Part shown: in pieces, positions 10,779 through 45,210 of the stretch
Layout: each line of letters starts with the position of its first letter
Numbering within the stretch: position 1 is the first letter of the stretch
Source of the DNA: Candidatus Uhrbacteria bacterium
GTDB taxonomy: Bacteria; Patescibacteriota; Patescibacteriia; UBA9934
Direction of reading: 5' to 3'
Assembly (NCBI GenBank): GCA_903827265.1
Contig: CAIKHN010000024.1
Location: 69,332 to 117,653, forward strand
DNA: 48,322 bases
Position numbers and translations under genes: made by a program
The notes under the pieces: generated by a model
What the model saw: the letters and a program-made list of their open reading frames with translations, nothing else
Told to the model about the DNA's origin: nothing
Databases searched by the model: none

Positions 10779-12257
10779 ATGCGACTCCAACCTGTTATCG
10801 GCCTTGAAACCCACATCGAGCTCAGCACGAAAACCAAGATGTTTTGCGGTTGTAACGCTCATGACGAAGGCGCCTTGCCGAATACTCACGTCTGTCCAAT
10901 TTGTACCGGCCACCCAGGAACACTTCCCGTTCCAAACGCCGGAGCACTTCGCTACGCCGTCCTCCTCGGTCTTGCACTCAATGGAACCATTACCGAACAC
11001 TCAAAGTTTGACCGGAAGCATTATTTCTACCCCGATCTTCCAAAGGCGTATCAAATTTCACAATTCGATCTTCCCGTCATGCAGAACGGTGAACTTGTTA
11101 TAGATGTCCCAAATGAAGGCGCGGTTCGCATCGGCATTGAACGCATGCATCTTGAGGAAGATTCCGCAAAAAACATTCACGGCGATGACGGAAAAACATA
11201 CGTCGATTTTAATCGTGCAAGCGTTCCGCTGTGTGAAATTGTTACAAAACCAGACTTCCGCAATTCAGCGCAGGCAAAAGCGTACGTTCAGGAACTGCGC
11301 CTTCTTGTGCGAACGCTTGGTATTTCTGAAGGCGATCTCGAACGTGGACACTTGCGATGCGATGTGAACGTCTCCCTTCGAGAAGTCGACGAACATGGTG
11401 CACCAACCGGTCCGCTCAACCCAAAGACGGAGATTAAAAACATCAATTCCTTCCGCGCGATTGAACGATCAATCGACTACGAAATTGCTCGACAGACCGC
11501 ACTATGGGAAGCAGGAACACCGCCAATGATTACCACAACTCGAGGATGGAACGACACAACGCAAACAACAGATCTTCAGCGAACCAAAGAAGACTCTGCT
11601 GATTACCGCTACTTCCCAGAACCAGATATTCCGCCATTGGATTTGCGTGAATTTGTTCGTGAAATCACAGAAAATATTCCAGAACTTCCTCGCGCAAAAC
11701 GGGAACGTTTTGTGAATGACTACGGTTTTAAGCCTGAGATTTCCAAACAAATCATCGACGACTCTGCGCTCGCAGATTTCATCGAAGGAACGATGAGCGA
11801 ACTCCGATTAAAGCTCCAGTCTTCGCCACTATTGGCCGCCGATCTCGCCAAGCTCGTCAGCGGCTGGACACTCACGAAATTCGCAAGCGTCCTTGCAAAC
11901 GAAGGGAAAACTATCCTCAGCGCAACAATGACGCCAGAGCGCTTTGCGGAATTCCTCGCGTGCCTCGCGCAAGGAAAACTTACCGCGCAAAAAGGACTCG
12001 AAGTTCTCACTGCAATGGAGCGCGACAATCTTGAACTCTCAGAAGCAATGAACGCCGTCGGCGCGTCATCGATCGACGATTCATCCGTCATCGATTCAAT
12101 CGTCGCCGACGTCATGGAAAAGAATGCAGGCGAAGTGGCGCGCTACAAGAATGGCGAAACAAAACTCTTCGCGTTTCTTCTTGGCCAAGTCATGAAAGCC
12201 GCAAAAGGAAACGCCGATCCTGCAACCGCAACAGAAGCACTAAAAAAAGCGCTATAA
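10779..12257 (+). CDS. gatB: Asp-tRNA(Asn)/Glu-tRNA(Gln) amidotransferase subunit B
   Basis: IGLETHIELSTKTKMFCGC, YFYPDLPKAYQISQ, LRCDVNVS, YRYFPEPD, and a C-terminal YqeY-like tail. Confidence 0.95.
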   Translation: MRLQPVIGLETHIELSTKTKMFCGCNAHDEGALPNTHVCPICTGHPGTLPVPNAGALRYAVLLGLALNGTITEHSKFDRKHYFYPDLPKAYQISQFDLPVMQNGELVIDVPNEGAVRIGIERMHLEEDSAKNIHGDDGKTYVDFNRASVPLCEIVTKPDFRNSAQAKAYVQELRLLVRTLGISEGDLERGHLRCDVNVSLREVDEHGAPTGPLNPKTEIKNINSFRAIERSIDYEIARQTALWEAGTPPMITTTRGWNDTTQTTDLQRTKEDSADYRYFPEPDIPPLDLREFVREITENIPELPRAKRERFVNDYGFKPEISKQIIDDSALADFIEGTMSELRLKLQSSPLLAADLAKLVSGWTLTKFASVLANEGKTILSATMTPERFAEFLACLAQGKLTAQKGLEVLTAMERDNLELSEAMNAVGASSIDDSSVIDSIVADVMEKNAGEVARYKNGETKLFAFLLGQVMKAAKGNADPATATEALKKAL

Positions 12258-12971
12258 TCCGCGTTCTGCGTTGATCATTCTCGCCATATCGTGATCGATA
12301 GCTTTCATCTCTTTCACGATTTCTTGTTTTCGCCCAAACTGCCAGAATTTCAGTGTTTCAAGCTCAAATGCAAGCTCCTCCCGACGGGCACGAAGCTTTT
12401 CTTTTGGCGTCGCAACCGCGCGCTCGACTCTCTCTTCCTGAGACATCGCCGCAGAAAGCACTGAGCCAATCTTCTCTTGCGCTGCACGAATTCGTCCGGC
12501 ACGAGAACCAGAACGCGCCGCGTTTGGAAGCATGGATTCAATTTGCGATTCAACGCGATCGCGCTGTATTCGAGCTTCCTCAATCTCACGATCAAGCGTC
12601 GCGAGCCGCTCACGCCCCGCCTTTGAGAGTCGCGCAACAAATCCATCTGCGTTCTTTCGCGTAAGGCGAAGTTCTCGTAATTGCGCATTCAACGCGTCGC
12701 GCATCGCCGTAAGAACAGCGGGCTGTTCGGAAAGCGATTCCGTTCTGCTTGGCCTATTTTGCGTAAGACGACCACGGATCTCTTGAGCCTTGACTCGATC
12801 TTTTGCACGAAACGTTGTTTCACCAGACTGCCCTCTGATCTCATTCGGTGGCAACATTGGCGCGCCAACAATGTCGTCAGCAGATTCGACGACGCTTTCT
12901 GGAATATTCGGCAACTCAATTCGAGGCATCTTCTCCGCATCGTGCATCCCTTCCATGCGTCCATCGACCAT
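12252..12971 (-). CDS. hypothetical charged/coiled-coil protein
   Basis: Arg/Glu-rich helical sequence with no motif recognised. It lies 11 nt downstream of miaA on the same strand. Confidence 0.5.
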   Translation of the reverse strand: MVDGRMEGMHDAEKMPRIELPNIPESVVESADDIVGAPMLPPNEIRGQSGETTFRAKDRVKAQEIRGRLTQNRPSRTESLSEQPAVLTAMRDALNAQLRELRLTRKNADGFVARLSKAGRERLATLDREIEEARIQRDRVESQIESMLPNAARSGSRAGRIRAAQEKIGSVLSAAMSQEERVERAVATPKEKLRARREELAFELETLKFWQFGRKQEIVKEMKAIDHDMARMINAERGL

Positions 12972-12982
12972 ACACTTAAGCG

Positions 12983-14002
12983 TTAGCGCTTAAGGAAATT
13001 GTCCGCTAATTTACGAGCCTCGTCGACGCCAGTTACCCACAGAACCCGCGAATCCCTTTGAAACCACGTCTCTTGGCGCTTTGCGTAATGGTGGCTGTCG
13101 TATTTTATGCGCAATACCGCATCACGGAGCTGTTCTTTCTTTTGGAAAAAATCGACAATCTGTCGGTAGCCGATTCCCGTCATTCCCGGACAATCATCGC
13201 CATACTCGTCACGAAGCTTACGAACTTCATCGACAAGTCCTTTGCCGATCATTTCATCAACGCGCAGATCGATGTCGGCGTACAGCTGTTCGCGAGGCTT
13301 GGTGACGCCGATCTGAAGCGCATCGTACATCGGTTCACCGAATTCCTGGCGGTCCGCCAATGTTTTTCCTGTTGTTCGAAGAATCTCAAGCGCACGAATG
13401 AGTCGTCGACGGTTCCGATCATCAATTGTTGACGCAGTGTCAGGATCACGTGACGCAATCTCTTCAAGAAGCTCATTGTCCGTCATCAATTCAAGTTCCA
13501 ATCGGAGCGCAGCGTCAGGCGCGGTATTTGCGTAGTTTGGGCGATCGATGATGGCGCGAATATATAAGCCCGTTCCACCAACGAGGATAGGAACATGACC
13601 ACGGTCAAGGATCTCGGCAATTTTCTTGTCGGCATACTCCTGAAACTGCGAAACCGTGAAAACCTCGCTCGGATCGACGAGGTCGATTCCCCAATGAGGA
13701 ATGCCCTGAACCATGTGAGGGCGATCGGCGAAAAGCGCGTTGATTCCCGATTCGGGTTCGAGACGACCCAGCGAGTCGTCTCTACGATCGGATTCGGGCT
13801 TTGCCGTCCCGATATTCATGTGTCTGTACACCGTTCGGCTATCGGCAGCGATAATTTCTCCGCCAACGTGTTTTGCGAGCACAATGCCAATATTCGTTTT
13901 CCCCGAACACGTCGGACCGACAACGGCGATGATTTTTGGAAGATTTCCGTCCATATTTTCCAATCCTATCACCTTTTTTTGAACCAATCTATTCCCCGTC
14001 AT
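12983..14002 (-). CDS. miaA: tRNA dimethylallyltransferase
   Basis: P-loop VVGPTCSGKT, then TAKP, GGTGLY. The start could alternatively be the ATG at 13954. Confidence 0.9.
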   Translation of the reverse strand: MTGNRLVQKKVIGLENMDGNLPKIIAVVGPTCSGKTNIGIVLAKHVGGEIIAADSRTVYRHMNIGTAKPESDRRDDSLGRLEPESGINALFADRPHMVQGIPHWGIDLVDPSEVFTVSQFQEYADKKIAEILDRGHVPILVGGTGLYIRAIIDRPNYANTAPDAALRLELELMTDNELLEEIASRDPDTASTIDDRNRRRLIRALEILRTTGKTLADRQEFGEPMYDALQIGVTKPREQLYADIDLRVDEMIGKGLVDEVRKLRDEYGDDCPGMTGIGYRQIVDFFQKKEQLRDAVLRIKYDSHHYAKRQETWFQRDSRVLWVTGVDEARKLADNFLKR

Positions 14003-15638: not shown

Positions 15639-15992
15639 ATGTCTCTCCAAACCATCGTGACCAACGCACCACTTGCAGAAGACGTTCGGGCATACCTCCT
15701 TGAGAGAATCGAGAAAGAAGGCGCGACGGCGGATGTTCTTGCAACAGTGAAAGAAGCACTTCAGGCGTACATCGATGCAGGGTTTAAATCAGAAGGAATC
15801 GAAGTGAACGCAAAAGATCCTGTTGTTGTGACGGCGCAACAAGCGTTTGCTGAAGAAGTCGCGGAAGCAACAGCAGAGTTTACCGAAGAAACTGAAAATC
15901 TCGCGATTGATGCAGCCGTTGAACAAGCAAAGGCAAATAAAGCACTCGACAGACTTCAGGCAAACACAGTACGAGCACAAATGGCCACATAA
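15639..15992 (+). CDS. hypothetical acidic helical protein (117 aa)
   Basis: Ala/Glu-rich. It starts 8 nt after the preceding gene. Confidence 0.5.
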   Translation: MSLQTIVTNAPLAEDVRAYLLERIEKEGATADVLATVKEALQAYIDAGFKSEGIEVNAKDPVVVTAQQAFAEEVAEATAEFTEETENLAIDAAVEQAKANKALDRLQANTVRAQMAT

Positions 15993-15996
15993 ATAC

Positions 15997-16032
15997 AAAA
16001 CACACGGCGCCAATTCGGCGCCGTGTGTTTTG
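15997..16032. terminator. bidirectional intrinsic terminator
   Basis: AAAACACACGGCGCC-aattc-GGCGCCGTGTGTTTT lies between convergent genes. Confidence 0.85.
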
Positions 16033-16038
16033 TATTAC

Positions 16039-17781
16039 TTACACTGGCAATTTTCCTGCCTCTACTGCGCGGCTCACGATCTCGCTCCGTGGAATAATGA
16101 GCGATTCGTCGCTTCCGAAGACTTTCACTTGAATGTCTCCCCCGTCGCGCTCCTTTGCACCAACCACAATAGTCCAGGGCACTTTATTCATTGCGGCGTC
16201 ACGAATCTTCTTTCCCACTTTTTCCGGCGCGTCGTCCAGTGTTACGCGGACGCCGGCAGCTTCGAGATTCATCTTCATCGCCCTTGCGGTGTCAATAAAC
16301 TCATCGGCCACCGTTGCAACGCGAACCTGCTCTGGAGCAAGCCACATTGGGAAAGCACCAGCAAAATGCTCAATCATCACGCCGATGAATCGCTCGAGCG
16401 ATCCGAGAATCGCGCGGTGAATCATCACCGGGCGTTGCTTCACGTTTTCAGAATCTGTGTATTCAAGCTCGAATCGCTCTGGAAGATTAAAGTCGAGCTG
16501 AATTGTTGCGAGCTGCCATTCACGACCGATCGCATCAGTAGCGATAAAGTCGATTTTTGGCCCGTAGAACGCCGCCTCACCAACACCGAGGAAGTACTCC
16601 TGGTTCATATCGGCGAGCAATTCTTTCAGCGTTCCCACAGCCTTCTCCCACACTTCTGCGCCGCCAAGATACGCTTCTGGCTTTGCAGGATCGTTCACCG
16701 ACAAGCGAGCCTTGAGCGGCATCTGGAATGCCTCGTAGAATTTCGTGATGATATTCGCGATTGCACGAGCCTCGTCCTTCACCTGATCAAGCCGGCAGAA
16801 CACGTGCGCGTCGTCTTGAGTGATCGACCGAACACGCGACAGCCCCTGAAGTTGTCCGGTATTCTCGTCGCGATACACGGTGGTCACTTCGCTATAACGA
16901 AGCGGCAAATCGCGATAGCTTCGGCCACGTGACGCAAAAATTTGCGTGTGATGCGGACAGTTCATCGGCTTTAACACAAATGCGTCGTCCGTCTTCTTGC
17001 TCGACACATGGAAAATGTCGTCCGCAAATTTATCCCAGTGTCCACTCGTTTTATACAAGTCGCTCTTTGCCATGTGCGGAATGGTCACTTTGGTGTATCC
17101 GTACGGCTTCATAAGTGCCCAAACGAACGCGACAAGCTGTTCACGAAGCACAGTGCCGCGAGGCGTGAACAATGGAAGGCCTGGTCCGACCAGTGGGGAA
17201 AACGCGAAGAGATCGAGCTCAACGCCGAGCTTTCGGTGATCGCGCTTCTTTGCTTCCTCGAGCATCGCAAGATGCGCATCGCGCTCTGCTTTTGTTGGAA
17301 ACGCAATACCGTAAATACGCGTCAGCTGATCGTTATGTTCATCGCCGCGCCAATATGCTCCAGCGAGTTTCGTGAGCGAAAAACATTCTGGATCGAGTGC
17401 GGCAATACCGTCAGCATGACCGCCGCGACACAGATCGGAATAATTTCCTGACGTGTAAAGGGTCAGCGTCTGCCCATCGCCAGCAAATTCATCGATAAGT
17501 TCAACCTTGTATTTGTTATCTGCGAACAGCGATCGAGCTTCGTCTGTCGTGACTTCTTTTCGATGGAATGCGATCCAGTCCGGCATCAGCTCACGCATCT
17601 TTGCTTCAATCTTTGGAAGATCTTCTTCTGAGATTGGCGTAGAAAATGCGAAGTCGTAATAGAACCCGTCATCGATAGCTGGGCCAATCGTGCGTTTTGC
17701 ATCCGGATAGAGTTCGAGCACTGCCGCTGCGAGCAAGTGCGCGAGTGAGTGTCGGAGATGTTGTAAATCTTCAGAGTTCAT
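16039..17781 (-). CDS. thrS: threonine--tRNA ligase (no N-terminal TGS domain)
   Basis: HSLAHLL (editing/SAD HxxxH), class II motifs (FRDE-like YRDENTGQLQGLSRVR, GVGEAAFYGPK) and a C-terminal anticodon-binding domain. The ATG at 17781 is preferred because the upstream 108 nt of the ORF overlap the T-box terminator. Confidence 0.93.
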   Translation of the reverse strand: MNSEDLQHLRHSLAHLLAAAVLELYPDAKRTIGPAIDDGFYYDFAFSTPISEEDLPKIEAKMRELMPDWIAFHRKEVTTDEARSLFADNKYKVELIDEFAGDGQTLTLYTSGNYSDLCRGGHADGIAALDPECFSLTKLAGAYWRGDEHNDQLTRIYGIAFPTKAERDAHLAMLEEAKKRDHRKLGVELDLFAFSPLVGPGLPLFTPRGTVLREQLVAFVWALMKPYGYTKVTIPHMAKSDLYKTSGHWDKFADDIFHVSSKKTDDAFVLKPMNCPHHTQIFASRGRSYRDLPLRYSEVTTVYRDENTGQLQGLSRVRSITQDDAHVFCRLDQVKDEARAIANIITKFYEAFQMPLKARLSVNDPAKPEAYLGGAEVWEKAVGTLKELLADMNQEYFLGVGEAAFYGPKIDFIATDAIGREWQLATIQLDFNLPERFELEYTDSENVKQRPVMIHRAILGSLERFIGVMIEHFAGAFPMWLAPEQVRVATVADEFIDTARAMKMNLEAAGVRVTLDDAPEKVGKKIRDAAMNKVPWTIVVGAKERDGGDIQVKVFGSDESLIIPRSEIVSRAVEAGKLPV

Positions 17782-17979: not shown

Positions 17980-19131
17980 CTATTCCGTAATAACAATCTT
18001 GATATGATCCTTCAGCGTTGGCACACGTTCAAGCCAGAATGGAGTAAAGCTTACTGACGCGTCCTTCACCGCTTCCGATGCGCGAAGCAACGTCAGCACC
18101 TCATTCGGCGCACGACCAACAAAACGATCCTTATTCAACACCGCGGAGTCTTCTGAGAGAATCGCCTTTCCTTCAAGATACACGCCAAGTGTTGCCGTTC
18201 CCTTTTTTACATCCGCACTCTTCACCGACATCTGCACGGCGTCCGTAGAAACATTCTCTGCAGCGTATCCGTCAGGAACGCGGCTGTACAGCTGCGACAG
18301 TGCGTATTTCTTTACCGAATTCTGATCGTAATAGACCGCCGTCACGTCCATGGAAAGCGTAACGGTAAAACTTCCAACATCAGCACCAACTGCAGCACTC
18401 GCGCCTTGAGAAGTTACGGTTGACGTATATGATTCGCCAGTGAAGACGTTTCGATCAACGCCAGCCGACAGCGCTGCTTTTGCCTTTTCAAGTTGTGACG
18501 TTGAAACAGACGACACCGCGTCGTCGATATCTTTCTGCGTCAAAACACGCTTGTATGACACTCCACCCTTCATCGACTCTACACTCACTGCGTAAATGGT
18601 TTTCTGCATAGACTCTGGCAGTCCTGGAATAGTGAATTGCGTTGGACCAATTTCACCGGAGAGCCCAGCTTTGTCTGCATGAGCGATCACGTCGACCTGA
18701 CCTTTCGACGGAACGTTCACTGCGGAATCGATTCTGAAGAGCACACCATCCTTCGAAAGCAGCCGTGTTGTTGCAACGAGCGCTTGCGATGATCCGGATT
18801 CGTTAATAATCGTTACCGTTCCTCCAGCCTTTTCCTCAACCGCCGTTCCGCCGTCTGTTGGGAGCGTAATCACTTCCTGAGTGTTGAACGACTGCTTTGA
18901 AACGATGCCGCTCAATTCACCATCATTCGCCGGGTTCGCTACCGCTTGCACTTCCGTATCGACCGAAATCACTCGAGGATTCGCAATAATAGTGATCGTT
19001 GCTCGAGAAATAGATAAATACAGCACCGCGAGCAACAGAAAAAACGTCATGAACACAAACGCCACCGCAATCCGCTGATACACCTTCAGCGAACGCGATA
19101 GTGGCTGTGCTCCGCGAGTTTCACGTGCCAT
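17980..19131 (-). CDS. hypothetical N-terminally membrane-anchored extracytoplasmic protein
   Basis: A single N-terminal TM (IAVAFVFMTFFLLLAVLYLSI) followed by a beta-rich Ser/Thr/Val-rich domain. No motif recognised. Confidence 0.6.
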   Translation of the reverse strand: MARETRGAQPLSRSLKVYQRIAVAFVFMTFFLLLAVLYLSISRATITIIANPRVISVDTEVQAVANPANDGELSGIVSKQSFNTQEVITLPTDGGTAVEEKAGGTVTIINESGSSQALVATTRLLSKDGVLFRIDSAVNVPSKGQVDVIAHADKAGLSGEIGPTQFTIPGLPESMQKTIYAVSVESMKGGVSYKRVLTQKDIDDAVSSVSTSQLEKAKAALSAGVDRNVFTGESYTSTVTSQGASAAVGADVGSFTVTLSMDVTAVYYDQNSVKKYALSQLYSRVPDGYAAENVSTDAVQMSVKSADVKKGTATLGVYLEGKAILSEDSAVLNKDRFVGRAPNEVLTLLRASEAVKDASVSFTPFWLERVPTLKDHIKIVITE

Positions 19132-24693: not shown

Positions 24694-24701
24694 TACAGCA
24701 A

Positions 24702-24735
24702 GAAAACACCCACCGGATACTCGGTGGGTGTTTTC
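24702..24735. terminator. bidirectional intrinsic terminator
   Basis: GAAAACACCCACCG-gatact-CGGTGGGTGTTTTC. Confidence 0.85.
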
Positions 24736-26249
24736 TATACAAGCCGCTCCAATGCGCGAGTCAATGCGCTGATAATCTTTTCGACCTCAATAACCGTCTC
24801 GGTTCCCGCACTAATTCGAAGAAACGGTTCTGTGGTTCCAACGGCGCGCAACGCCGTGAGATATACGCGAGTTTTTGACAATCCAAAACTGCTTCCGGCA
24901 ATGAGTTCGACTCCGCGATTTCGCGCTTCTTCAACCGCGTACTCAAGAAACTTCATGTGCGTTGCGGTCTTTCGATATCGTTCTTTTAAGACGATGACGA
25001 AGAAAGCACCGTGAAAGTCTCGATCTTTCATCCAAGCATGCGCCGGATGATTCGGTAACCCTGGATATACAATACGCTCAAGCACGGTTCGACGATCGGA
25101 TCGAACGTGAATATCGAGTGCCTGCGCAATCATCGTTGCGTTCCGATGATGTCGACCTAATCGTTTCTTGAGAATCGATCGATTCGGCCACGGCAGCGAA
25201 AGCACCGATGCATCGACGAGATTTGTTCCAATATGCATCCTTCTACCGAAGAGCGGAAACGGGGACATCGCGGTTCGCCACATGATTCCTCCACTCACCC
25301 GATCCATTCCGTACTGATGAAATTTCAAAAGACTTTCAAAGACAATGACGTGCAGTTTTATATTGAGCAAAGGAATATCATTCAATACTTGATACGTCAT
25401 CGACGTTCCTGTTGCATCGAGAACGAGCGTCAATGGAGACTCAAGAACATGAAAAATCCGAGGAATCAACGTCGCGAGATCCGGTGCCGCCATCGTTATC
25501 GCATTACACATCGTGTCCAAGAAAAGCACCGAAGGCTTATGAACACGAATCGCTTCAATGATCGCCTCGACGTCCATCTCGTCGACAAGAATAACGCGAC
25601 TGGGGAAATAGAGTTGCGCGATTTGAATATTTTCAAAATAACTCGATGCACCAATCAACACCGGCCCCTTGCATGTTGGATCGTCGAGGAGCGTTGCGAC
25701 AATAGTCGTGAATGCAGCCATTCCACTTGCTGTCACAAATGCAAACGGCGTGAATCGCAACGCGGAATCGATATATTCTTTTACAAATGCCTGTTCGTAT
25801 CGCAGTTCGTCCCAATGCTGATCACGTTTATAATCATTCACTGTTCCGGTAATACTCCCCGTCTCAAGCCCGGCCTGCGAGTGCTTCGCGGCCAAAAACG
25901 ATGGCGATTGCCAACCGGAAGACGCGAGGAGTGCACCACTCACACCCTGAAAATTTCTCAAAATATCGGCGACACGATCGCGAACCTGCAAACATTCATC
26001 CAACCGGCTCTGATCACGGACACTCAACAACTCGCGGAGATCGCTCGCGCATTTTTCGTAGATTGATAGCAAAGTTTTTTCTTGATCAAGAAGCGCTGTC
26101 GATGTTTCCGGAAGAAGATGCTTCTGGCGCTTCGACCGAAGCGCCGCAATACGCTCGGATCGATCTTCGATGATCCACAAAAGCTCGGCGCAGTCGTCGC
26201 GGAGATCCAGGAATGATTGTGCAACAGCATCGTCCATATCTTCAAGCAT
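24735..26249 (-). CDS. PLP-dependent enzyme of the Cys/Met-metabolism (cystathionine synthase/lyase-like) fold with N-terminal extension
   Basis: ASGMAAFTTIV and FESLLKFHQYGMDRVSGG (candidate PLP lysine) are typical of fold-type I trans-sulfuration enzymes. About 130 extra aa at the N-terminus are unassigned. Confidence 0.6.
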   Translation of the reverse strand: MLEDMDDAVAQSFLDLRDDCAELLWIIEDRSERIAALRSKRQKHLLPETSTALLDQEKTLLSIYEKCASDLRELLSVRDQSRLDECLQVRDRVADILRNFQGVSGALLASSGWQSPSFLAAKHSQAGLETGSITGTVNDYKRDQHWDELRYEQAFVKEYIDSALRFTPFAFVTASGMAAFTTIVATLLDDPTCKGPVLIGASSYFENIQIAQLYFPSRVILVDEMDVEAIIEAIRVHKPSVLFLDTMCNAITMAAPDLATLIPRIFHVLESPLTLVLDATGTSMTYQVLNDIPLLNIKLHVIVFESLLKFHQYGMDRVSGGIMWRTAMSPFPLFGRRMHIGTNLVDASVLSLPWPNRSILKKRLGRHHRNATMIAQALDIHVRSDRRTVLERIVYPGLPNHPAHAWMKDRDFHGAFFVIVLKERYRKTATHMKFLEYAVEEARNRGVELIAGSSFGLSKTRVYLTALRAVGTTEPFLRISAGTETVIEVEKIISALTRALERLV

Positions 26250-31988: not shown

Positions 31989-33263
31989 TCAAACCATCTC
32001 GGCCGCAGCAATAAATTGATTTCCGCGGTCTTCGAAATTTTTAAATTGGCCGTAACTTGGAGATGCCGGGGAAAGAAGGCAGATCGATCCTGGTTTTGCG
32101 CGGGCGACGACGTCACCTACGATCTCGCCGAGCGTTTTCATCGGAATCGACTTCCCGCCAACCACCGCGATCGCGTCGGCAATCTTTTCTCCCCCAGGAA
32201 GAATGTACGCAGTGATTCCGAGATCGACTACGCGTTTCGCCAAATCGGCAAAATGATATCCACGATTCTGGCCGCCGAGAATAATCGCGCCGAGATCTTT
32301 TTCAAAAACAGCGATCGCCGCGAGTGCAGACTGCGGAGTTGTCGAGATCGAATCGTTGACGAACCGAATTCCGTGATGAACGCCAATATCCTGCATTCGG
32401 TGCGGCAATGGCTCGAAGGCGGAAAATGCCTTCTCAACAACTGCGCGATCGATACCAAGATAATCGGTGACCGCAAGCACGCCGGCGGCGTTTTCGCGGT
32501 TGTGGTCGCCGAGAAGTTTCAGTGAATTCAAAGATCGATCATTTCGATCAACAAACGGAATCGCCTTCGACTTTACATGTGCTGCGAGGTCGACAAGTTT
32601 TGGAAACTTCTCGTTGTACACAAAAACATCGTTCGCGGCTTGCAGGTCGGCGATGCGCATCTTCGCGGCGTGGTAACTTTCCACGTCGCCGTGATAGTCC
32701 ATGTGCTCTTCGTACAAGTTGAGGATAACAGCGATGTCGGGAGCGATGGTGAGATCGGAAAGTTGGTAACTCGACATCTCGAGGACAAAAATCGTTTCTA
32801 CAGGATCGTTCACGTGTGAAATTGCTGGTTCGCCGATGTTTCCCGCAAGAACAACAGGCTTCCCCGCCGCCTTCAGAACGTGAGCAAGAAGCGACGATGT
32901 GGTGCTCTTTCCTTTCGTTCCAGTAACACCAACAATCTTCCCCTTCCCCTTGCGCTCGGCCATGAAAATATTCGTGCTCGAGGTGAAGTGAGCGCCAGCA
33001 TTTTGCATTTCCTCGACGTACGCGCGATGCCATGGGATTCCTGGAGATTTGATGACGACGGTTTCTGGAGTAACGGCGGCAATAGCGTCGATGAGTTGGT
33101 GATACTCCGGAACACCAATCTCCTGCTCGTCGGTGACGATGATGCGTACTGTGGGAACCTTGGATTTCAAAACATCGTACACCGCTTTTCCTTCGCGGCC
33201 GAATCCTAAAATGATGACAACTTTATCGGAAAGATCAGCGAGATGCATAGACCAATTGAGCAT
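31989..33263 (-). CDS. murD: UDP-N-acetylmuramoyl-L-alanine--glutamate ligase (MurD family)
   Basis: GFGREGKA, GVTGTKGKSTTSSLLAHVL, and Mur ligase middle and C-terminal domains. Confidence 0.88.
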   Translation of the reverse strand: MLNWSMHLADLSDKVVIILGFGREGKAVYDVLKSKVPTVRIIVTDEQEIGVPEYHQLIDAIAAVTPETVVIKSPGIPWHRAYVEEMQNAGAHFTSSTNIFMAERKGKGKIVGVTGTKGKSTTSSLLAHVLKAAGKPVVLAGNIGEPAISHVNDPVETIFVLEMSSYQLSDLTIAPDIAVILNLYEEHMDYHGDVESYHAAKMRIADLQAANDVFVYNEKFPKLVDLAAHVKSKAIPFVDRNDRSLNSLKLLGDHNRENAAGVLAVTDYLGIDRAVVEKAFSAFEPLPHRMQDIGVHHGIRFVNDSISTTPQSALAAIAVFEKDLGAIILGGQNRGYHFADLAKRVVDLGITAYILPGGEKIADAIAVVGGKSIPMKTLGEIVGDVVARAKPGSICLLSPASPSYGQFKNFEDRGNQFIAAAEMV

Positions 33264-34662
33264 ACTCCTCTGGCAGAGAATGTTCCGTTGAGAGTGTTAG
33301 GGCACGATTAATGAGCGCGTCGATGTCTTTCCTCGACGACATCACGTCTGCCTCGAACCATTTCATCATTGGCGAATCCTCGTACTCGCCACGGCCGTGA
33401 ATCAACGCGAATGCAGCAATCACTTCTTCGAATTCACCGACACATTCAAACGGCTTCATCGTTCCGTATCCTGTAAGATCTTTGTACATCGGAAGAAGAT
33501 CTTCGCGGACCAACAGATCTTCACCAAACATCTCCACCATCTTTCGTCGAGGAATAAATGCGCCGAGCATAACGAAAACGAATGCACACTTTGGGCACTT
33601 GCCGCACCATCGCGTCACCGTTGGTACACTGCCTTGTTTGTAATTCGTATTACAGCTCGAAAACACGTTGAAATATTTTGCGTTTGCCGCAAATCGGCGC
33701 GCGATGTCGAGCTCGGAAAGTGGTCGGAGCAGGCTGAAGACGCGAACATCTTTCGATACGAACAATTCGATGTAGTGCTGAAGATCGCGCTCAGCCTCAA
33801 GGCTTTTGCTGTACTGGTGGTTAATGACAACACCGTCGACTTCCGTGTTTCCCGAGTTCGCACTTCGCTCATTAGCGAAAATCACATCGCGTCGACCATT
33901 CAGCGTCGCCACGATCGATGCCGCGATTCCGACGTACGCCGTAATTGGCACGTGACCGTTCCACGCACCGGCCTTGTTCAGTTCGATAAGTTTCGGATCG
34001 ATGACGCGCGATACGGAGAAAAGTTTTCCACCGACCTCTGCAGCAACCTCGCGGATTCTTGCGTGATTCCCAAACATGAACAGATCGAACGGGATATTCG
34101 CCAACTTCAGCATCTCGATTGCGACGAGGGAATCCTTCCCGCCACCGATGGGAACGATGGCGCCGGCGAGTGGCTTCCCCTTATTTATGGGGGGACCGAG
34201 GGGGGCCGAATCTAACGCCCCCTCCGACTCACTCTCCTCACCCGGCTCAGGTTCGTCGAGCGCCATAAATGGGGGAGAGAATTCGCCAACCGGAAACCTC
34301 ACATAATCCCTAAAATCTAAATCATTTCGGAAAAAGAACTCACCGAGTCCCAACGTATACAACTTATTCCACGATGCAGCCTGCTCGGCAGACAATGTTC
34401 CAGATTCAACGATGATCGTTGGAGGTAACTTCGCTTTGTAGTAGCTAATTCCGGCGATGAGGTGAAGGGCGAAGAGGGCGCGATCCAAAGCCCCCTCCGA
34501 CTCCCCCATAAATGGGGGAGTGTTTTCACCAATCGGAAACACCAACCGCTCCACAAATTCCTCTTCGTCGATTCCGTACTTCAACAACACTTCCCCACTT
34601 TCGCGATCAAAAGAATAGGACTTGAAAATGAATTGCTTCGCAGGGGAAATGATGGTTTGCAT
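33235..34662 (-). CDS. PP-loop-like ATPase-fold protein of unknown function, coupled to murD (MurL-like candidate)
   Basis: IVPIGGGKDSLVAIEML resembles the SGGxDS PP-loop. It also has a C-terminal CGKCPKC. Its 3' end overlaps the murD start by 29 nt. The gene contains in-frame GC-rich repeat elements. Confidence 0.5.
   Translation of the reverse strand: MQTIISPAKQFIFKSYSFDRESGEVLLKYGIDEEEFVERLVFPIGENTPPFMGESEGALDRALFALHLIAGISYYKAKLPPTIIVESGTLSAEQAASWNKLYTLGLGEFFFRNDLDFRDYVRFPVGEFSPPFMALDEPEPGEESESEGALDSAPLGPPINKGKPLAGAIVPIGGGKDSLVAIEMLKLANIPFDLFMFGNHARIREVAAEVGGKLFSVSRVIDPKLIELNKAGAWNGHVPITAYVGIAASIVATLNGRRDVIFANERSANSGNTEVDGVVINHQYSKSLEAERDLQHYIELFVSKDVRVFSLLRPLSELDIARRFAANAKYFNVFSSCNTNYKQGSVPTVTRWCGKCPKCAFVFVMLGAFIPRRKMVEMFGEDLLVREDLLPMYKDLTGYGTMKPFECVGEFEEVIAAFALIHGRGEYEDSPMMKWFEADVMSSRKDIDALINRALTLSTEHSLPEEYAQLVYASR
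34207..34295 (-). repeat. in-frame C-run/G-run palindromic element, copy A (interrupted by about 31 nt)
   Basis: The coding strand reads ttccggttggcgaattctctcccccatttatgg[31 nt]gagtcggagggggcgttagattcg, about 85% identical to copy B outside the insert. Further hairpin modules abut it at 34177-34225. Confidence 0.7.
34481..34538 (-). repeat. in-frame C-run/G-run palindromic element, copy B
   Basis: The coding strand reads ttccgattggtgaaaacactcccccatttatgggggagtcggagggggctttggatcg. It forms a perfect 8-bp hairpin CTCCCCCA-TTTA-TGGGGGAG and encodes FPIGENTPPFMGESEGALD. Confidence 0.7.
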
Positions 34663-39533: not shown

Positions 39534-39550
39534 TCATATAGTCCCTAAAC

Positions 39551-39578
39551 AAAACCATCCGAATTTTCGGATGGTTTT
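39551..39578 (+). terminator. intrinsic terminator after clpC
   Basis: AAAACCATCCG-aatttt-CGGATGGTTTT. It is followed by the extended -10 TGATATAAT at 39589-39597. Confidence 0.85.
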
Positions 39579-39608
39579 GTGTGTTGCGTGATATAATCAG
39601 GACATCAT

Positions 39609-43782: not shown

Positions 43783-43810
43783 CCAAAACGTCAGAGTTCT
43801 TCTAGGCTTG

Positions 43811-45154
43811 ATGCATATGTTTGTCTGTACACACTGCGACGCACAAAGTCTAAAATGGAGCGGGCGATGCGTAACCTGCGGACAATGGGGAACGGTTTTT
43901 GATGAAGGAGAAGTTCCAGAAAAAACAGGATCGACAAAAGCAAAAAGTGTAAAGTCGCGACCAGCCGCAACGCTCAACCTCGCAGCAGCAACAACGGCCA
44001 TTGTTGAACGACAAAGCACAAACATCAGCGAACTTGATCGCGTTCTTGGCGGCGGTCTTGTGCCAGGATCGGTCACGTTACTTGCCGGAGAGCCAGGAAT
44101 CGGAAAAAGCACATTGGTCGCGCAGTTGGCGGCGAGCTTTTCGGTGAATCCTCCCCCTCCTTATGAAGGAGGGGGTCGGGGGGAGGTGAAGAACTCATAC
44201 TACGCTTCCGGCGAGGAATCAGAAGGTCAGGTTCGACTTCGGTTTGTTCGACTCGGACTCAATCCTGAACATGTCGTATTCTCGAATGCGACAGAAACTG
44301 GATCAATCATCGCGGCAGCGGAAACAATGAAGCCGAGTATCGTCATCGTCGACTCAATCCAAACAATGATGACGGAAGGCGTGGAATCGTTCCCTGGCAC
44401 ACCAACAGCGGTGCGAGCAGCGACATCAGAACTCATCTCGTACGCGAAAGCCTCGAATGTTCCGGTGCTCATCATCGGCCAAGTGACGAAAGATGGAATC
44501 GTGGCAGGCCCGAAGACACTCGAACATCTCGTGGACACTGTTTTAACACTCGAAGGCGATGCGACAAGCGCGTATCGGCTGCTTCGCGCAAGCAAGAATC
44601 GTTTCGGTAGCGTGGAAGACGTTGGTGTATTCGCAATGACGGAAAAAGGCATGGTCCCCGTCGAGAATCCGTCGGCGATGTTTCTAAAAGAGCGTGTCGA
44701 CGGCCCAGGATCGGTCGTAACGTGCATTATGGAAGGCAACCGTCCGTTCCTCGTCGAGATCCAGGCGCTTATTGATAAAAGCTTTTTCCCAAATCCTGTT
44801 CGCCGTACGAGCGGTTACGATGTTGGTCGATTACAAATGCTCCTCGCGATTCTAAGTAAGCGCGCCGGCGTTCGGGTTTACGATCAAGACGTGTACGTCA
44901 ACGTTGTTGGCGGCTTAAAGCTCGACGAACCAAGCGCCGATCTGGCTGTTGCCGCAGCAATCCTCTCCGCAATAGACAACGTCACCTTCCCCGCCAAAAC
45001 CATCGTCATCGGCGAACTCGGACTCGGCGGCGAAGTACGGTCTGTCGCCTTCAGCGAACGCCGTCGAAAAGAAGCGGAACGATTAGGATTCGGAACGATC
45101 CTTGATCCGAAATCAATTAAGACCGTCAGTGAGCTGAGAGCGAAGATGAAATAG
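43811..45154 (+). CDS. radA: DNA repair protein RadA/Sms
   Basis: Zn finger CTHCDAQSLKWSGRCVTCGQWGT, Walker A GEPGIGKST, KNRFG, and a Lon-like C-domain. It contains a 42-nt in-frame GC-rich insertion. Confidence 0.93.
   Translation: MHMFVCTHCDAQSLKWSGRCVTCGQWGTVFDEGEVPEKTGSTKAKSVKSRPAATLNLAAATTAIVERQSTNISELDRVLGGGLVPGSVTLLAGEPGIGKSTLVAQLAASFSVNPPPPYEGGGRGEVKNSYYASGEESEGQVRLRFVRLGLNPEHVVFSNATETGSIIAAAETMKPSIVIVDSIQTMMTEGVESFPGTPTAVRAATSELISYAKASNVPVLIIGQVTKDGIVAGPKTLEHLVDTVLTLEGDATSAYRLLRASKNRFGSVEDVGVFAMTEKGMVPVENPSAMFLKERVDGPGSVVTCIMEGNRPFLVEIQALIDKSFFPNPVRRTSGYDVGRLQMLLAILSKRAGVRVYDQDVYVNVVGGLKLDEPSADLAVAAAILSAIDNVTFPAKTIVIGELGLGGEVRSVAFSERRRKEAERLGFGTILDPKSIKTVSELRAKMK
44141..44190 (+). 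repeat. in-frame C-run/G-run palindromic element inside radA
   Basis: ggtgaatCCTCCCCCTCCttatgaaGGAGGGGGtcggGGGGAGGtg. It forms a perfect 8-bp hairpin CCCCCTCC-ttatgaa-GGAGGGGG and encodes NPPPPYEGGGRGEV between Walker A and the YASGEES segment. Confidence 0.7.
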
Positions 45155-45163
45155 TTCTACACA

Positions 45164-45189
45164 AAAAGGATCCGATGGGATCCTTTTTG
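45164..45189. terminator. bidirectional intrinsic terminator
   Basis: AAAAAGGATCC-gatg-GGATCCTTTTT. Confidence 0.85.
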
Positions 45190-45210
45190 TATTTGTGTAC
45201 GAAAAATGTG

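Follow-up and report, generated by a model that had tools for sequence, protein, structure and literature searches.

The stretch of DNA analyzed here, 48,322 nucleotides (nt) of a Candidatus Uhrbacteria genome (contig CAIKHN010000024.1, positions 69,332 to 117,653; hereafter the window), raises the question why a homolog of murL, the gene for UDP-MurNAc-L-Ala-L-Glu epimerase, carries two look-alike segments of C-runs and G-runs within its reading frame. An initial annotation, made from the letters alone, had described the two segments (copies A and B) as short palindromic elements inserted in frame. It is concluded with good confidence that each belongs to a family of structured, G/C-rich DNA repeats dispersed in a Patescibacteria clade and is carried in frame; the family would be spread as DNA together with cassettes encoding DUF559 proteins. 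A dispersed repeat family, copies situated in frame and in protein loops, covariation between mirror-related parts of the repeat and a physical association with DUF559 genes were all observed. In the following, L-numbers denote loci of relatives or other genomes and P-numbers denote homologous proteins. The features at the murL locus are:

33235-34662, minus strand: murL homolog, 475 amino acids, assigned with NCBIfam, Pfam and AlphaFold2.
34490-34530, minus strand: copy B (site 1), a single intact unit, found by repeat search, nhmmer (E 6.7e-11) and folding.
34216-34287, minus strand: copy A (site 2), a disrupted unit, found by repeat search and nhmmer (E 1.9e-4).
34177-34215, plus strand: decayed inverted partner unit at site 2, seen in the sequence, with a weak nhmmer match at 34164-34204 (E 0.021).

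The resemblance of the two segments was verified by a repeat search, which returned one direct-repeat block of 35 nt at 86% identity (34263-34297 versus 34506-34540) and a second of 34 nt at 79% (34197-34230 versus 34470-34503). Both copies begin in identical codon phase and encode the peptides that had been announced for them, FPIGENTPPFMGESEGALD at residues 42-60 for site 1 and FPVGEFSPPFM...ESEGALD ahead of the GGGKDS loop (residues 173-178) for site 2. The block spacings are 243 and 273 nt and copy A is therefore longer by a net 30 nt; the insert within it does exist, but its reported size of 31 nt was off by one, and a 33-nt stretch (34231-34263) occupies the place of a single codon, GGG, in copy B. 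The perfect hairpin claimed for copy B, ACTCCCCCA-TTTA-TGGGGGAGT, is present at 34500-34521. Read in order, this copy consists of an GGTGAAAACA leader, a CTCCCCC arm, an ATTTAT loop, a GGGGGAG arm, a TCG linker, a GAGGGGG mirror box and a final C; it encodes GENTPPFMGESEGA (residues 45-58) and shares 40 of 41 nt with the right half of the element at L119. Copy A retains the leader GGCGAATTCT, the CTCCCCC arm, the loop and the GAGTCGGAGGGGGCG box, while the 33-nt stretch takes the place of the purine arm. Watson-Crick folding with ViennaRNA yielded -16.5 kcal/mol for copy B (z = -4.6) and an unremarkable value for the broken copy A (z = -0.9). The further C-run/G-run modules noted beside copy A, CCCCTTATTTATGGGGGG and GGGGGGCCGAATCTAACGCCCCC, are found at 34177-34225, and the partner unit reads, on the plus strand, CCCCTTATTTATGGGGGG, ACC and GAGGGGGGC, after which a 9-nt spacer leads to copy A. 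The G+C content had been put at roughly 48% and measures about 50-51% across the window. The window has fewer runs of at least five C or G than shuffled sequences do (26 versus about 80), and 10 of these 26 fall in the murL segments and one site in radA. The 15-mer CTCCCCCATTTATGG occurs three times in the window, compared with 0.04 expected.

The radA site holds the third copy in the window:

44143-44186, plus strand: radA unit, in frame within radA (43808-45154), found in the sequence and by nhmmer (E 3.9e-3).

All nhmmer searches employed a family profile built from six 82-nt elements. The radA unit is composed of a GGTGAATCCT leader, the last two bases of which (CT) lengthen the stem to 10 base pairs, a CCCCCTCCT arm, a TATGA loop, a AGGAGGGGG arm, a TCG linker and a GGGGGAGG mirror box, and it encodes VNPPPPYEGGGRGE. 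Compared with the solved RadA of S. pneumoniae (5LKM) it represents an insertion of 13 residues behind the Walker A helix and ahead of the strand that comes next; in 34 of 120 homologs, one of them 94% identical, the length of this stretch is 19 residues. The same loop is a hot spot among relatives, where different units as well as half, full (two-unit) and decayed forms are seen. Public genomes were scanned with the exact 18-mer TCCCCCATTTATGGGGGA, which was recovered at at least 120 loci versus about 17 expected by chance (estimated from the collection size), including at least five contigs of one Uhrbacteria metagenome-assembled genome and at least three of another. Among the matches listed, in-frame units were detected in UvrB, class II and class I aminoacyl-tRNA synthetases, a GT2 glycosyltransferase, ribulose-phosphate 3-epimerase (Rpe), ComEC and a PKD-domain protein; MurD also carries in-frame units, and unit DNA is read in other frames and orientations in unrelated proteins, giving SPIYGGVGGG, APSDSPINGGE or LPHKWGR. 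A few units are intergenic (L048, L103 and position 13090 of L137) and some follow directly after stop codons. The genome of one relative, L137, is densely occupied, with about ten units in 21 kb, compared with zero in the syntenic 21 kb of L004; murL holds two of them, murD three and pheT one, while radA has a full element. Units of L137 at 11567-11628, 11780-11802, 12765-12858, 13090-13192, 16685-16719 and 18977-19012 vary in their loops and arms, with several variants of each, and include a tail module of greater length, GGGGAGTCGGCTCGCGGYTCCGAAG.... A scan of viral contigs gave no match to the unit, and a metagenome scan with a pattern of 28 specified bases gave 6 loci only, because exact matching misses variants.

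Comparison of the copies reveals the anatomy of the unit, which is about 40 nt long and comprises a GGTGA-type leader (GGTGAA...CTC), a pyrimidine arm of 7-9 nt (CTCCCCC, CCCCTCC, CCCCCTCCT, CTCCCTCC and similar), a loop of 3-7 nt, a purine arm complementary to the first, a linker of 3-4 nt and a purine box; a 34-mer of the unit reads CTCCCCCATTTATGGGGGAGTCGGAGGGGGC. The initial annotation was thus right about the hairpin, but the element is more than a palindrome, as the unit also has a purine box that is the mirror, and not the complement, of the purine arm. This rule holds in 47 of 48 units with seven arm types, the terminal A of the box sometimes being T:

Arm GGGGGAG, box GAGGGGG: 27 of 27 units.
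Arm GGAGGGG, box GGGGAGG: 6 of 6 units.
Arm GGAGGGAG, box GAGGGAGG: 2 of 2 units.
Arm GGGGGGAG, box GAGGGGGG: 1 of 1 unit.
Arm GGGGGGA, box AGGGGGG: 1 of 1 unit.
Arm AGGGGGAG, box GAGGGGG(T): 6 of 7 units.
Arm AGGAGGGGG, box GGGGGAGG(T): 4 of 4 units.

The opposite flank of the hairpin matches the mirror at just 1-5 of 7-9 positions. We read the covariation of arm and box as a structural constraint, because slippage and template switching yield direct or inverted repeats and not mirror repeats. The sequence pattern is that required of a class II (purine-motif) intrastrand triplex, and the family is therefore a relative of the BoxC, PIT and TM_ECO repeats discussed below. Two units, one of the CCCCTCC type and one of the CTCCCCC type, form the 82-nt element as an inverted pair, for which Watson-Crick folding of the single-stranded DNA predicts two hairpins, with a terminal stem closing the structure (-23 kcal/mol, z = -2.9). 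Five of six reading frames are open across the core, four of six with the leader and three of six across the full element. The very same 18-mer hairpin also lies at the core of multi-copy repeats of many phyla, each with flanks of its own (loci from Pantoea, Caulobacteraceae, Hyphococcus, Chloroflexota, cyanobacteria and Pasteurellaceae); judged by eye, these loci obey the mirror-box rule as well, with a second hairpin sometimes serving as the linker.

The association of the units with DUF559 genes was seen at loci outside the window, in which DUF559 and lgt genes were both sought and neither was found. At L130 and L127, an open reading frame (ORF) with a DUF559 match (Pfam E 2.5e-33 and 3.5e-37) is flanked by inverted units. 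In L130 the terminal inverted repeats are perfect over 36 nt, both units lie inside the DUF559 ORF (MIEAPSDSPINGGE ... SPPFMGESEGALV), and the start and stop of this ORF overlap the stop and start of its neighbors as ATGA. In L134 the units around the DUF559 gene correspond exactly to the left half and the right half of the 82-nt element, whose spacer the gene replaces. Three further cassettes sit where operon genes adjoin tightly (Wzy-GT4, X-lgt and trxA-trxB). DUF559 ORFs that have units as their first and last codons and are wedged between operon genes, stops and starts overlapping, are:

L130, 6019-6474.
L127.
L134, 1612-2103.
L135, 1030-1497.
L136, 2439-2924.

Among the matches listed, all eight DUF559 genes in about 1 Mb of hairpin-selected loci are within 222 nt of a hairpin, six of them in Alphaproteobacteria, and 12 of the 13 closest homologs of the L130 protein start or finish in unit-encoded peptides. 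The units consistently bracket DUF559 genes in Patescibacteria and Alphaproteobacteria, an arrangement that appears to be new; a literature search on DUF559 with repeats or mobility, and on MITEs (miniature transposable elements with inverted repeats) in Patescibacteria, returned nothing relevant. In Escherichia coli K-12 (L138; NC_000913.3, 1351030-1351840), ycjD, a DUF559 gene, is followed by the relic 3' end of a second DUF559 gene and, about 170 nt downstream, by a canonical TM_ECO motif, CCCTCGCCC-CTCT-GGGGAGAGGG-TTA-GGGTGAGGGG. This adjacency is unlikely to arise by chance, as there are 23 TM_ECO copies in the 4.6-Mb genome (PMC4666352). Of 5426 E. coli genomes, about 38% fail to reach 80% coverage of a 901-nt sapF-ycjD-fabI query, and those listed retain the fabI-proximal end only. 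E. coli O157:H7 was considered as an empty ycjD site and proved uninformative, since different genes occupy the region and the motif is absent. Among PD-(D/E)xK nucleases, DUF559 falls in the Vsr clade, of which a homing endonuclease of a group I intron is also a member (PMC3424549).

The origin of the murL copies was approached through an alignment of 38 MurL homologs and a table of 120. The named relatives of this MurL belong to Patescibacteria, chiefly Candidatus Uhrbacteria. At site 1 the window reads FPIGENTPPFMGESEGALDRAL and close relatives read FPIPATGIPEGIDGALDRAL (FPIPATGIPEGIDGALD), so that the unit stands where these have the loop PATGIPEGID; distant orthologs have unrelated loops of similar length. 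Site 2, between a conserved FP and the GGGKDS loop, differs in length among homologs, with about 20 residues in the shortest and over 60 in the longest. In the AlphaFold2 model (mean predicted local distance difference test (pLDDT) score 86.9, predicted template modeling score 0.86), site 1 is a coil between the strand 34-41 and the helix 54-70, and site 2 falls in a disordered linker, in which residues 128-162 score below 50 in pLDDT, just ahead of the strand that leads into the P-loop; a search by sequence found no solved MurL structure. The checks proposed at the outset therefore came out in favor of lineage-specific insertions in loops, with further copies in radA and in many genes of related Patescibacteria and with distant orthologs free of the peptides, and neither of the two outcomes named beforehand as speaking against this idea (the peptides in distant orthologs, no further copies) occurred. 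The relatives display site 2 in several states. L003, whose MurL is 71% identical, has GGTGAAAACTCTCCCCCATTTATGGGGGAGTCGGAGGGGGCT there, which matches copy B of the window at 41 of 42 nt; the 33-nt stretch of copy A recurs with 32 of 33 identities in L002 (MurL P0017, 72% identical); L004 and L005 (80% identical) carry the decayed copy ISAPSMVEVEGAL shown by P0012; and L001 (85% identical) has a unit free of interruption, after which comes a perfect inverted partner, TCCCCCC-ATTTAT-GGGGGGA-TTG-AGGGGGG. By these comparisons, the DNA of the units is conserved beyond the need of the protein. Other recurrent peptides occupy the same two MurL loops in other lineages, namely GEPGLPRRDYxPRNDG and TYNLQP or TPYELRP (P0006, P0011, P0014, P0016, P0036; P0013, P0015, P0028, P0033, P0034, P0087, P0104). 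P0013, P0015 and P0033 carry such motifs at both sites. Other repeat families are the probable source of these peptides.

How copy B came to be at site 1 admits a second answer, which is a serious contender although it falls short of an even chance: ectopic gene conversion of the site 2 element onto site 1 via short homologies (TTTCCGrTT upstream, GGnGCnyTnGAT downstream), for which no genome-wide mobile process is needed. The site 1 sequence of the window departs from that of its relatives exactly between these two anchors, and the change is a replacement of 33 nt by 39 nt and not a clean insertion. The same type of motif is present at both sites in other lineages (PPLQGGVG in P0031 and P0035, TYNL in P0013 and P0015, PYEL in P0033), and the two murL sites of L137 have about 85-100 nt in common, including the tail past the box. 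However, copy B is nearer to the family consensus, as seen from its match to the right half of L119, than to the present copy A, and the variant at both L137 sites is present elsewhere in the same genome too, so that both loops may be hot spots for an abundant variant. Conversion within murL also leaves radA and the other host genes unexplained. For copy B the choice is between intragenic conversion and independent acquisition from another genomic copy, both of which are template-directed and act on a dispersed family.

Formation of the hairpins on the spot by mutation, through template switching or quasi-palindrome correction at runs of proline codons, is improbable. Loops do vary among copies with perfect stems, and filled sites do resemble replacements, but such processes give no mirror repeats, and here the box covaries with the arm in seven arm types. 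The leader (GGTGAA...CTC) and the fixed 3-4-nt linker are moreover common to copies in unrelated genes and genomes, and units of 40-82 nt are near-identical between genomes. Just as little credit is given to a role of the units as regulators of their host genes, as ribosome-pausing mRNA hairpins, attenuators or terminators. Copy B folds stably and one terminator-like match exists, an antisense hairpin followed by TGTTTTCA, but one such match agrees with chance (1.1 expected), and a promoter and terminator scan of the murL region gave nothing beyond chance. Rfam returned no family above threshold for the murL region and five full-element loci, only sub-threshold look-alikes of microRNA precursors and small RNAs, and copies occur in both orientations, several frames and genes of unrelated function. 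According to the works cited as refs 41 and 43 in PMC4666352, E. coli PIT elements acted neither as promoters nor as terminators, and RNA does not form triplexes of the purine motif. The idea that the shared segment is an old repeat within the protein, or a peptide motif with a function in MurL and kept by protein selection, can practically be dismissed in spite of the shared phase and frame of the copies and the recurrence of SPPFMGE(S/L)EG at site 2 of P0002, P0019, P0021 and P0027, as the shared peptide is missing from most close and all distant orthologs (a comparison that rules out an ancient domain repeat), site 2 is a disordered linker of widely varying length, synonymous positions are conserved between lineages of about 30% protein divergence, and the same DNA is found in unrelated proteins in other frames and orientations and, decayed, in P0012.

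We now turn to the place of the dispersed DNA repeat among known systems. The initial annotation knew of no described family with this sequence. The architecture belongs to a known class, BoxC/PIT/TM_ECO; the sequence family, its in-frame habit and its link to DUF559 are not described in the literature searched. The TM_ECO repeat of E. coli (also BoxC, PIT) reads CCCTCNCCC-N3-6-GGGNGAGGG-N3-GGGNGAGGG, with 9-nt stems and the class II purine motif, in which a 5' pyrimidine stem is separated by a first loop of 3-6 nt from a purine stem, and this by a second loop of 3 nt from the mirrored purine stem, with G.G:C, A.A:T and T.A:T triads; triplex formation was demonstrated in vitro by circular dichroism and nuclear magnetic resonance, and 3610 occurrences were reported in 262 proteobacterial genomes (PMC4666352; for BoxC and PIT, Hoyne and Maher 2000 and 2002, as cited in this paper by Holder et al. 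2015). TM_ECO is strongly unequal in copy number between related strains and is associated with rearranged loci, and the 23 copies of E. coli K-12 are reported to be always intergenic and unlinked to mobile elements, five of them occurring as inverted pairs of two types; the term 'endonuclease' is absent from that paper (PMC4666352). The units described here have the same order of stems and loops (47 of 48 following the mirror rule in the seven arm types), with conserved stems and variable loops, and they are likewise dispersed in many copies, unequal in load between strains and arranged in inverted pairs of two types. They differ in their 7-9-nt arms of the CTCCCCC or CCCCTCC type instead of CCCTCNCCC, in not matching the TM_ECO consensus, and in their location, which is not confined to intergenic DNA: they occur in Patescibacteria, many in frame in essential genes, and bracket DUF559. 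Such in-frame carriage in housekeeping genes appears to be new for triplex repeats.

In this habit the units resemble the Rickettsia palindromic elements (RPEs), the comparison made at the outset and now supported by the radA copy and by the many genes of related genomes: both are short self-complementary repeats that lie in frame in unrelated housekeeping genes, are translated at fold-compatible positions and have no known transposase. RPEs are about 150 bp long, comprise ten families and are confined to Rickettsia (reviewed in PMC10969869); the present units, at 40-82 nt, are shorter, and their G/C-rich sequence and mirror box set them apart from the description of RPEs. As in MITEs, inverted terminal repeats are combined with small size (the 82-nt element, the 36-nt ends of L130), a longer form exists that has the same ends around a gene (the DUF559 cassette of about 470-490 nt in L134 and L130), and the load is unequal between related genomes. 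In contrast to MITEs, the terminal modules lie within the ORF, the Vsr-like PD-(D/E)xK nuclease is not a known transposase and a clear target-site duplication was not found. Repetitive extragenic palindromic (REP) sequences, which are extragenic, start with a GTAG-type 5' tetranucleotide and depend on a REP-associated tyrosine transposase (RAYT; Y1 HUH) gene, likewise are short hairpin repeats that occur singly or as inverted doublets in many dispersed copies; the units have no GTAG-type start and are in many cases intragenic. The cassettes finally recall free-standing homing endonuclease genes, in that a small nuclease gene, known here as DUF559 from sequence alone, is wedged in the same orientation between operon genes with overlapping stops and starts (Wzy-GT4, trxA-trxB, X-lgt).

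The repeat would most probably be spread as DNA, by insertion or by short-tract gene conversion, together with the DUF559 (Vsr-like, PD-(D/E)xK) cassettes that have the same units as their ends. On one reading the cassette would be an autonomous parent, from which the 82-nt and 40-nt copies derive by lacking the gene; on the other, the nuclease gene would home into the repeat. Copies may persist because most frames are free of stops and C- and G-runs encode a Pro/Gly-rich coil that would be tolerated in surface loops or a disordered linker. Several points weigh against this interpretation. No signature of transposition was found: filled and empty versions of murL site 1 and of radA (compared with murL in L001 and L004 and radA in L132) differ by replacement of the loop and not by a clean insertion that duplicates its target site. 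A TATGATC repeat does flank the L130 cassette; it coincides with the overlapping stop and start codons and could just preserve them. We know of no transposase or homing activity of DUF559, and its adjacency could make the repeat the landing site of the nuclease and not its passenger. Triplex folding is deduced from the symmetry of the units, the collection scan behind the at least 120 loci took in ATTTAT-loop variants only, and dispersal in this organism's own genome is witnessed, within the 48-kb window, by radA.

The host gene itself is assigned as follows. Its product matches the MurL model NF041275 of NCBIfam with E 1e-116 and 390 bits, which is under the 700-bit equivalog cut-off set for Xanthomonadales, and a database protein identical to it matches Pfam MurL_N and MurL_epimerase_C (PF26299, PF26298). 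A HAD/PMM-type gene precedes murL, and the linkage to a murD-type ligase agrees with the MurD2/MurL pathway (described in PMC8788868):

31989-33263: murD-type ligase gene, immediately downstream of murL and overlapping its end.

Many MurL orthologs bear the NCBI label 'endonuclease domain-containing protein' (P0012, P0018, P0022, P0049, P0060, P0094, P0100), some of them without any unit. Elsewhere in the window, a 27-nt hairpin, CGCGGCGGCCCTTACCCGGCCGCCGCG, is present twice (352-378 and 1044-1070, 692 nt apart), and long perfect hairpins with stems of 13-20 base pairs and A- and T-runs at their feet, resembling bidirectional intrinsic terminators, are found at 15992-16036, 24701-24736, 39549-39580 and 45161-45190.

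Repeats of the BoxC/PIT/TM type have been orphan elements since the 1990s. A wider proposal, put forward tentatively, is that they are the termini or homing targets of a widespread selfish element with DUF559 as its sole gene, gene-less derivatives of which colonize protein loops of the streamlined Patescibacteria in frame. If this is true, DUF559 would gain a function and the triplex repeats a way to spread, and Patescibacteria would join Rickettsia as the second lineage of bacteria whose essential proteins routinely contain translated selfish DNA. DUF559 in any case provides a testable candidate for the origin and movement of the repeats, which the published BoxC/TM_ECO work left open, and the intrastrand-triplex repeat class would be extended to a new phylum and to coding DNA. 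For the reduced-genome Patescibacteria, the finding means that essential enzymes (MurL, RadA, UvrB, aminoacyl-tRNA synthetases) carry a translated structured DNA repeat, copies of which are taken for ordinary low-complexity linkers by annotation pipelines and structure predictors, and that odd Pro/Gly-rich insertions and length polymorphism in Patescibacteria ortholog alignments are accounted for by these units.

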